Part shown: in pieces, positions 34,026 to 35,192 of the stretch
Layout: every line of letters begins with the position of its first letter
Numbering within the stretch: the first letter of the stretch is position 1
From: Savitreella phatthalungensis
Lineage: Eukaryota
DNA length: 64,000 nt
Reading direction: 5' to 3'
Assembly: GCA_051599415.1 (NCBI GenBank)
Contig: AP039704.1
Location: 62,001-126,000, forward strand
Notes under the pieces: model-generated
The model's input: the letters and a program-made list of their open reading frames with translations, nothing else
Told to the model about the DNA's origin: nothing
Database searches by the model: none
Translations under genes and position numbers: made by a program

Positions 34026-35192
34026 ATGAAGGCAGCAATCCTGATCGCCACCTTGGCTGCAAGCGTGCTGGCCGCGCCTGCACCCGAGGTCACTTTCGCA
34101 GGCGCTGTCACTGAGGACGGTGGTGCGCCTGCACGTCCGAACGCCACGCAGTCAGGCAAGATCGACCGCTCGCGAACCGCCATCGTCGGCTGGACCGCCG
34201 ACCAAGTGAATGAGATGGCTCGCGGCTTTGCCGAACTCAAGGCGAAGGCCTCGGACGGCAACGTCGGGGTAGTCAAGCGCGAGGCCGAAGCCGAGGACAC
34301 CGACGTCGATGTCACCAATGCCGGTGAGATCATCAAGCGAAGTCCCGAGGCGCAACTGCCACGCCGACGAGGCCGCCGACGCCGCGGTCGCAATGCTAAC
34401 GCTAATGCAGCTGCCGCCGCTGGTGCCGCTGGTGCCGCAAATCCGCTAGCTGGCCTGCTCAACGCCGCACGGCAGGCAGGGCTTCCCGCAAAGCGCAGTG
34501 TCGATGAGGCCGGCGGCGACGTCGGCGTCTTCAAGCGTGCTATCGCCGACGAGGCGAACGGCGACGTCGGTGTGTTCAAGCGCGAGGCCGAGGCTGAGGC
34601 CGAGAACACCGACGTTGACGACACCATTGCTGGTGAGATCGACAAGCGAAGTCCCGAGGCGCAACGGCCACGCCGACGTGGCCGCAGACGCCGTGGTCGC
34701 AATGCTAATGCCGCAGCCGCACAGAACGCTGCTGCTGCCGACGCTGCTGCTGTTGCTGCTCCCGCTGGTGTCGCAGCGAACCCGGTAGCCGGGCAGCTGA
34801 ACGCTGCACCCCAGGCAGCGCTTCCTGCAAAGCGCAGCGTCGATGAAGCGGGTGGTGACGTTGGCGTCTTCAAGCGCGCAGTAGCCGACGAGGCGAATGG
34901 CGACGTCGGTGTGTTCAAGCGTGAGGCAGAAGCTGAGGCGGAAGCCGAAGCAGACCCGCAACGACCCAACCAGCGCAGGCCTCCCAACAACAACAATGGT
35001 CGCGTCCCGCGTCTTTCCCAGCAGGAGCAATCCGCGCTCGGTTCACCGCCCGCACCGTTCGACCGCACGCGTGGGACCAAGGTCTTCTCTCCTGCAATCT
35101 CACTCGCCAGCATGACCCCGGCACAACGCAATCGCGCTCGCGCACGCAACCCAAACAACAACAATCAGAGGGCACGTCGCCAGGCAGCGTAG
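34026..35192 (+). CDS. Secreted Kex2-processed repeat protein (KEP) precursor, 388 aa
   Basis: Signal peptide MKAAILIATLAASVLA; nine KR sites; X-A/X-P dipeptide runs (EAEA, SPEA, DP) after KR; internal 103-113 aa repeats. Confidence 0.88.
   Translation: MKAAILIATLAASVLAAPAPEVTFAGAVTEDGGAPARPNATQSGKIDRSRTAIVGWTADQVNEMARGFAELKAKASDGNVGVVKREAEAEDTDVDVTNAGEIIKRSPEAQLPRRRGRRRRGRNANANAAAAAGAAGAANPLAGLLNAARQAGLPAKRSVDEAGGDVGVFKRAIADEANGDVGVFKREAEAEAENTDVDDTIAGEIDKRSPEAQRPRRRGRRRRGRNANAAAAQNAAAADAAAVAAPAGVAANPVAGQLNAAPQAALPAKRSVDEAGGDVGVFKRAVADEANGDVGVFKREAEAEAEAEADPQRPNQRRPPNNNNGRVPRLSQQEQSALGSPPAPFDRTRGTKVFSPAISLASMTPAQRNRARARNPNNNNQRARRQAA

Follow-up and report, generated by a model that had tools for sequence, protein, structure and literature searches.

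We analyzed a stretch of 64,000 nucleotides of Savitreella phatthalungensis (contig AP039704.1, positions 62,001 to 126,000 of the forward strand), hereafter referred to as the window, and found that the gene in positions 34026..35192 of its + strand probably encodes a KEX2-processed repeat protein (KEP), that is, a precursor that would be secreted and cut at Lys-Arg (KR) pairs, yielding acidic and cationic peptides in a fixed, nearly charge-balanced proportion. The coding sequence comprises 388 codons and a stop, is uninterrupted and needs no intron. The open reading frame (ORF), the processing sites, the repeats and purifying selection on them can be read directly from the DNA.

The main evidence that the gene is real comes from its two full internal modules. 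These align over 101 codons, of which 58 are the same in both copies, while 31 show synonymous and 12 non-synonymous differences (proportions of synonymous and non-synonymous differences pS 0.41 and pN 0.058; dS 0.59, dN/dS 0.10), and 32 of the 46 base differences fall in codon position 3. Due to this predominance of synonymous changes, the gene can be considered real and subject to purifying selection in the + frame; by the same measure, all five other frames rank below frame 0 of the + strand. An antisense ORF of 410 codons (33881-35113, - strand) overlaps nearly the whole gene, but it was rejected as coding, with 25 synonymous and 15 non-synonymous changes compared to 31 and 12 in the + frame; it arises from the repeat being rich in GC and Ala. 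The two modules go back to an old duplication. The identical 388-residue protein has a single entry among the public proteins, from one 289-kb contig. A look for RNA runs covering positions 31000-38000 of the window returned none, which says nothing about expression.

The start of the gene was assigned to the ATG in position 34026. The sole TATAA of the 387-bp intergenic region (33944..33948, + strand) is located 82 bp before it. Another in-frame ATG (33939-33941) is found further upstream; it would add 29 residues to the protein and bury the signal peptide. Since the TATAA lies just 3' of the upstream ATG, its interpretation as a promoter mark would exclude that start and favor the 388-residue model.

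Residues 1-16 (MKAAILIATLAASVLA, followed by APAP; 34026..34073, + strand) form a signal peptide predicted by hydropathy and the -3/-1 rule: Val in position -3 and Ala in position -1 place the putative signal-peptidase cut at 16|17. Residues 3-17 are the sole strongly hydrophobic stretch of the protein (mean Kyte-Doolittle value 2.4). The composition is dominated by Ala (90 of 388 residues), Arg (45), Gly (33) and Asn (28), while Cys, His and Tyr are absent. Given the absence of Cys, the low content of Ser and Thr (7% in total), the single N-glycosylation sequon and the hydrophilic C-terminus, the protein does not have the features typical of a wall mannoprotein or of a glycosylphosphatidylinositol (GPI)-anchored protein. 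AlphaFold2, run without an alignment, predicts isolated helices only and no folded domain (mean predicted local distance difference test score, pLDDT, 49); the helices occupy residues 58-76, the Ala-rich tails 122-150 and 223-243, and the C-terminal end.

Nine KR pairs follow, in residue positions 84, 104, 156, 170, 185, 207, 269, 283 and 298, so that both the signal-peptide-like N-terminus and the nine sites reported in the initial annotation agree with hydropathy and with our recount. Arg comes directly after 9 of the 14 Lys residues. When the mature sequence is shuffled, it contains 1.56 +/- 1.16 KR pairs, and none of 20000 shuffles reaches nine, although this statistic treats as independent sites that are not, because of the repeats. 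All nine pairs fall exactly on unit borders; position P4 is occupied by Val or Ile in seven of the nine sites, and position P1' always by Glu, Ser or Ala. Kex2 has sequence preferences in positions P2 and P4, and the description of the P4 residues as favorable is partly based on them. Runs of X-Ala/X-Pro dipeptides are found after five of the nine KR sites and after the predicted signal-peptide cut (AP-AP). Three of these runs, SP-EA, SP-EA and EA-EA-EA-EA-EA-DP, end at a Gln (nucleotides 34353, 34662 and 34959), exactly as initially described; two further KR sites carrying dipeptides, KR-EAEA-EDTDVD... and KR-EAEAEA-ENTDVD..., are added here, as are AP-AP after the signal-peptide cut and the acidic GDVGVF peptides described below.

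The repeated module is approximately 100-113 residues long and is present in two full copies (residues 86-186 and 187-299), covering 55% of the protein, and in partial copies. It is composed of KR with EAEA(EA) and a 14-residue acidic peptide, KR with SP-EA, Q[L/R]PRRRGRRRRGRNANA and an Ala-rich tail, KR with SVDEAGGDVGVF, and KR with A[I/V]ADEANGDVGVF, closed by a further KR. The N-terminal piece preceding the modules (residues 17-85, 69 residues; 34074..34280; this and all following units are on the + strand) starts with AP-AP, contains the predicted helix 58-76 and ends with a degenerate acidic unit, ...SDGNVGVVKR; the DNA at its end aligns with the acidic unit (24 of 29 bases in a local alignment). 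The first copy of acidic unit A1 (34281..34340) has Ste13-type EAEA before EDTDVDVTNAGEII and KR. It is followed by cationic unit 1 (34341..34496), where SP-EA, QLPRRRGRRRRGR and an Ala-rich tail predicted to be helical precede KR, leaving 46 residues after trimming, and by acidic units A2 and A3 (SVDEAGGDVGVF-KR and AIADEANGDVGVF-KR; 34497..34583). In the second copy, unit A1 consists of EAEAEA, ENTDVDDTIAGEID and KR (34584..34649), cationic unit 2 of SP-EA, QRPRRRGRRRRGR, an Ala-rich tail and KR (34650..34835; 56 residues after trimming), and units A2 and A3 are SVDEAGGDVGVF-KR and AVADEANGDVGVF-KR (34836..34922). The C-terminal unit (34923..35189) is formed by EAEAEAEAEADP and a 77-residue Gln-initiated Asn/Arg-rich peptide, with a hydrophilic end and no GPI-type tail. 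Overall, acidic 12-13-mers ending in GDVGVF occur in four copies, and a degenerate fifth one ends in GNVGVV.

With KR and the X-Ala/X-Pro dipeptides removed in silico, the pieces following the N-terminal one have these charges along the chain: -5 (first A1), +9 (cationic unit 1), -3 and -3 (first A2 and A3), -6 (second A1), +8 (cationic unit 2), -3 and -3 (second A2 and A3), and +13 (the C-terminal peptide). Thus, acidic products of the two modules (-11 and -12) nearly balance the cationic ones (+9 and +8).

The constraint differs between segments of the module. It is strongest in SVDEAGGDVGVFKR, where the two copies differ by 7 synonymous and no non-synonymous changes in 14 codons; the cationic head SPEAQ...NANA has 5 and 1 in 21 codons, and A.ADEANGDVGVFKR has 3 and 1 in 15 codons. 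The EAEA...KR acidic unit shows 5 synonymous and 4 non-synonymous changes in 20 codons, while the last part of the Ala-rich tail, with 8 and 6 in 23 codons, is the least constrained, the tail having also three indels. Within the cationic head, RRRGRRRRGR (8 Arg in 10 residues) is identical in both copies despite three synonymous codon differences, as stated in the initial annotation. In the short acidic peptides the constraint is no weaker than in the Arg-rich heads, and the initial view of the acidic pieces as mere masks of the cationic peptides does not agree with the GDVGVF peptides being the most repeated and the most constrained part of the gene.

Secretion, each of the cleavages, pyroglutamate formation and any activity are what we infer from this arrangement. 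The product would be a secreted, cysteine-free, largely disordered precursor of alpha-factor-like design. The signal peptide would be removed after residue 16, a late-Golgi kexin would cut after each of the nine KR pairs, a Kex1-type carboxypeptidase would strip the basic pair, and a Ste13-type dipeptidyl aminopeptidase would strip the X-Ala/X-Pro dipeptides. Each module would then release four peptide classes in fixed proportion, namely the 14-residue acidic peptide; a peptide of 46 or 56 residues with an N-terminal Gln able to cyclize to pyroglutamate, the protamine-like RRRGRRRRGR head and the Ala-rich helical tail; and two classes of 12-13-residue acidic peptides ending in GDVGVF. The 77-residue cationic C-terminal peptide would be released as well, and the products presumably work together outside the cell. 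Binding to negatively charged surfaces would be the most likely task of the cationic peptides, either of competing microbes or of the wall of the fungus itself, while the conserved acidic 12-13-mers could be neutralizing partners of the cationic peptides or signals themselves.

The alpha-factor-type architecture (signal peptide, KR, X-Ala/X-Pro spacers and Gln after the spacer), proposed from the start, is supported by what is described for other fungal KEPs. In PMC9769878, mass spectrometry of KEP peptides demonstrates cleavage at KR and RR, removal of XA and XP dipeptides, and conversion of N-terminal Gln to pyroglutamate, which protects the N-terminus; because of these peptidomic data, the order of KR, dipeptides and Gln can be regarded as a documented fungal route of peptide production. 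X-Ala/X-Pro Ste13 signatures of KEPs are also described in PMC6339444 (Le Marquer et al. 2019), which requires of a KEP that it carry a signal peptide but no transmembrane segment, yield four or more fragments when cut at KR or RR, have three or more fragments resembling each other, and devote 15% or more of its length to the repeats. By the hydropathy heuristic, the protein has a signal peptide and no transmembrane segment; it is cut in silico into 10 fragments at KR alone and into 18 at KR or RR (two of the latter being empty), and the four GDVGVF 12-13-mers with their degenerate copy, identified by a regular expression and not by Fimo, exceed the required number of similar fragments.

Like KEPs with the Ste13 signature, including the Coprinopsis cinerea pyro-Gln KEPs, the gene has a signal peptide, KR-bounded repeats, X-Ala/X-Pro spacers, a Gln N-terminus after trimming, no fold and a stand-alone position. 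Unlike them, it has four peptide classes per module, with charge-balanced acidic and cationic modules; for comparison, only two of the 1193 KEPs of PMC6339444 have three motif types. It also differs in its long (46-77 residues) protamine-like products with internal RR, and none of its sequence relatives was found. Outside fungi, as to the resemblance to apidaecin-type precursors noted initially, the ant hymenoptaecin and bee apidaecin precursors (PMC3415428) have RR/KR, an EAEP-type spacer and a cationic Gln-first peptide, repeated to raise the output. Still, these are animal proteins with unrelated sequence, one product class and no conserved acidic partners, so that this is an analogy only.

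No relatives were identified in any of the collections searched. When the whole protein and residues 150-225 were searched against a word index of 5.8 billion proteins (the "longer" and "shorter" length classes being left out), only the query came back, and exhaustive phmmer against 1.84 billion representatives found, besides the query, a single unrelated repeat protein (P0002, 1822 residues). The latter was matched solely through its ...GMFKR repeats and was judged spurious; it contains many near-identical units of approximately 70 residues each (an estimate), each ending in ...KIVGMFKR. The scan of metagenome contigs gave 348 pattern matches, none of which was confirmed, and Pfam gave no match below E 0.3 and neither MF_alpha nor MF_alpha_N at E <= 10. 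No paralogue was found by tblastn within the window, where the best match (14857-15213, 30% identity over 122 residues) aligns with query residues 154-271, which are Ala-rich, and was judged compositional. The peptides were not recognized initially, and the Pfam, protein-collection and metagenome searches gave no match to a characterized precursor family. The language-model atlas gives no more than a lead: its look-alikes include the "Pheromone 1" and MF_alpha clusters with weak scores of 0.77-0.79, under the 0.9 line of the tool. Four peptide motif strings were absent from the searched literature. Table S2 of catalogue PMC7329392 gives accessions only.

The gene is located between housekeeping genes. 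The MTAP gene ends 387 bp upstream, and the Ipi1-like gene, on the opposite strand, ends approximately 130 bp downstream. All stop-to-stop ORFs that reach 90 codons and overlap positions 19-50 kb, 124 in number, were scanned against Pfam at E <= 1e-5, a scan that shorter exons escape. The matches among neighbors are TPPII, BRCT, alpha/beta hydrolase, HMG box, DUF202, MTAP, Ipi1, acyl-CoA dehydrogenase with cytochrome b5, and a Prp40-like protein, while DUF3328 (UstYa), tyrosinase and methyltransferase are found in none of the 124 ORFs. This agrees with the stand-alone position assumed initially, the recognizable neighbors being housekeeping genes. As for the individual genes, the HMG-box protein gene (26286-27350, - strand; Pfam HMG_box E 5e-12) lies approximately 7 kb upstream. 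The tripeptidyl-peptidase II gene (16566-20705, - strand), a single ORF of 1380 codons, encodes S8 subtilase and TPPII domains and is not a kexin. Three ORFs of 319, 337 and 374 codons (31397-32353, + strand; 44157-45167, - strand; 47184-48305, + strand) have no Pfam match at the same threshold.

The acyl-CoA dehydrogenase gene (37405-38961, + strand), with its N-terminal cytochrome b5, was used to place the host. Among the 120 matches listed for its product, the closest have 63-65% identity, and that of Protomyces lactucae-debilis has 58%. In a quick single-gene tree of 27 rows chosen from these matches, it groups with Protomyces (Taphrinomycotina) and three other rows on the ascomycete side (Shimodaira-Hasegawa-like approximate likelihood ratio test, SH-aLRT, 100). 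This suggests that the host belongs to the early-diverging ascomycetes and has no close relatives with sequenced genomes, and the lineage seems poorly sampled, since the best named relative of the dehydrogenase is only 58% identical.

The Arg tracts may not persist, being Kex2-type sites themselves. Their export from the Golgi in the intact form is possible but doubtful. The cationic products have the high net positive charge expected of antimicrobial and cell-penetrating peptides (+9, +8 and +13 in silico), and with 8 Arg in 10 residues they resemble protamines, which differ in being nuclear, and oligo-arginine peptides, which enter cells. Nevertheless, several observations weigh against this interpretation. 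Each Arg tract contains three non-overlapping RR matches, and kexins also cut at RR. The Ala-rich tails are weakly amphipathic (maximum hydrophobic moment 0.24-0.34), whereas Rep1 of Ustilago maydis and candidalysin of Candida albicans are hydrophobic or amphipathic; the amphipathic helix or hydrophobic face of cationic antimicrobial peptides is thus lacking, and the Arg head has no aromatic residue. As for the KEP explanation as a whole, the repeat coverage is borderline, as the GDVGVF class occupies 12.4% of the protein (4 x 12 residues), or 15.5% with the fifth copy, against the 15% rule. Conservation is likewise seen only between the internal copies, because no homologue was found in any other genome. 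An antimicrobial or cell-entering role of the cationic peptides seems unlikely, and slightly more so the full scenario, in which pyroglutamate-capped Arg-rich peptides are secreted intact and kill or enter other cells, while the conserved acidic partners shipped with them in stoichiometric amounts keep the producer safe. To our knowledge, a polyarginine effector released from a KEP together with its own antidote-like partner would be without precedent.

If the tracts are not exported intact, kexin would cut PR/RR in PRRRGRRRRGR and Kex1 would strip the basic ends, so that the products would be neutral Ala-rich peptides of 35-45 residues, along with the acidic ones and the tripeptide pGlu-X-Pro (pGlu, pyroglutamate), and would have a structural or surface-active, repellent-like role rather than a cationic one. 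Cutting at KR or RR in silico indeed leaves SPEAQ[L/R]P, RG and the neutral peptides GRNANA...LPA (35 and 45 residues), whose Ala-rich tails are predicted to be helical. Internal RR cutting, which the initial annotation had allowed for, is plausible, as PMC6339444 and PMC10135057 count RR among the KEX2 sites, and according to PMC9769878 a C. cinerea KEP produced in Pichia pastoris was cleaved at RR. Moreover, U. maydis Rep1 and C. albicans Ece1/candidalysin are described as Kex2-cut polyproteins giving surface- or membrane-acting peptides of 30-55 residues, those of Rep1 acting on the wall. At the same time, the Ala-rich tail, which would be the product, is the least constrained part, while exact RRRGRRRRGR is retained in both copies, and Rep1 lacks the Ste13 signature according to PMC6339444. 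Thus, shredding of the tracts together with such a role is rather unlikely.

The remaining interpretations differ in what the repeats are for. In a signaling or pheromone-type precursor, the 12-13-mers ...DEA.GDVGVF or the 14-mers after KR-EAEA would be the receptor-read products, and the Arg stretches spacers or cleavage hot-spots. The initial dismissal of a mating pheromone was too quick, since the neighbor gene places the host near Protomyces in Ascomycota, where, according to PMC6339444, KEPs with the Ste13 signature are typically alpha-type pheromone precursors; a KEP with this signature is therefore an a priori candidate for an alpha-type or P-factor-type precursor. The KR-EAEA-peptide-KR layout is indeed shared with the yeast alpha-factor (MFalpha1) and Schizosaccharomyces pombe P-factor (map2) precursors, P-factor arising, according to PMC6342294, when the kexin Krp1 cuts an array of 4-8 tandem repeats. 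The atlas look-alikes and the strong constraint on the SVDEAGGDVGVFKR 12-mer are consistent with such a role. However, despite the Ste13 signature at five KR sites, MF_alpha and MF_alpha_N are not matched; the peptides are either strongly acidic, lacking Trp, Pro and Gln, or Arg-rich, unlike the Trp/Pro/Gln-containing ones of MFalpha1 and map2; the 12-13-mers are not preceded by X-Ala spacers; and the Arg head is constrained too. On balance, a pheromone-type function appears quite unlikely. It is very unlikely that the protein is secreted or wall-associated, disordered and unprocessed, with KR pairs and EA runs being unused by-products of a low-complexity repeat: such an origin would suit a composition with 90 Ala and 45 Arg in 388 residues, but not the exact placement of the KR pairs on unit borders with favorable P4 and P1' residues, nor the absence of a Ser/Thr-rich region, a GPI-type end and Cys. 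A dikaritin- or ustiloxin-type precursor of a RiPP (a peptide made on ribosomes and modified after translation), whose repeated core would be cyclized by neighboring enzymes, is close to refuted. Short repeated cores flanked by KR, as reported for ustiloxin-type precursors, are present, but the enzymes of such pathways are absent from the 124 ORFs, and the protein has no Tyr, in contrast to the Tyr-containing core (YxIx type) reported for dikaritins.

The kind of precursor proposed here is known. The present gene is an orphan, and neither its four peptide classes nor its protamine-like cargo was found in the searched texts. KEPs are numerous in the catalogues (1193 in PMC6339444 and 7878 in PMC7329392), yet the product or function is known for very few of them. 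The products predicted for this gene have calculable masses: pGlu-LPRRR... and pGlu-RPRRR... (pGlu-LPRRRGRRRRGR... and pGlu-RPRRRGRRRRGR...), SVDEAGGDVGVF and A[IV]ADEANGDVGVF. The gene raises the question of whether a peptide made up of consecutive kexin sites can be delivered by a precursor that kexin processes. If so, and the protamine-like effector is intact, it has to be explained what protects such an RR-rich peptide from the kexin; it may inhibit the enzyme, in the way polyarginines act on furin. As one orphan gene, it has moderate weight at present. If the Arg peptides are delivered intact, the gene would be a natural route to make and export oligo-arginine peptides; if they are not, the conserved short acidic peptides would be candidate signals in a poorly studied ascomycete lineage.

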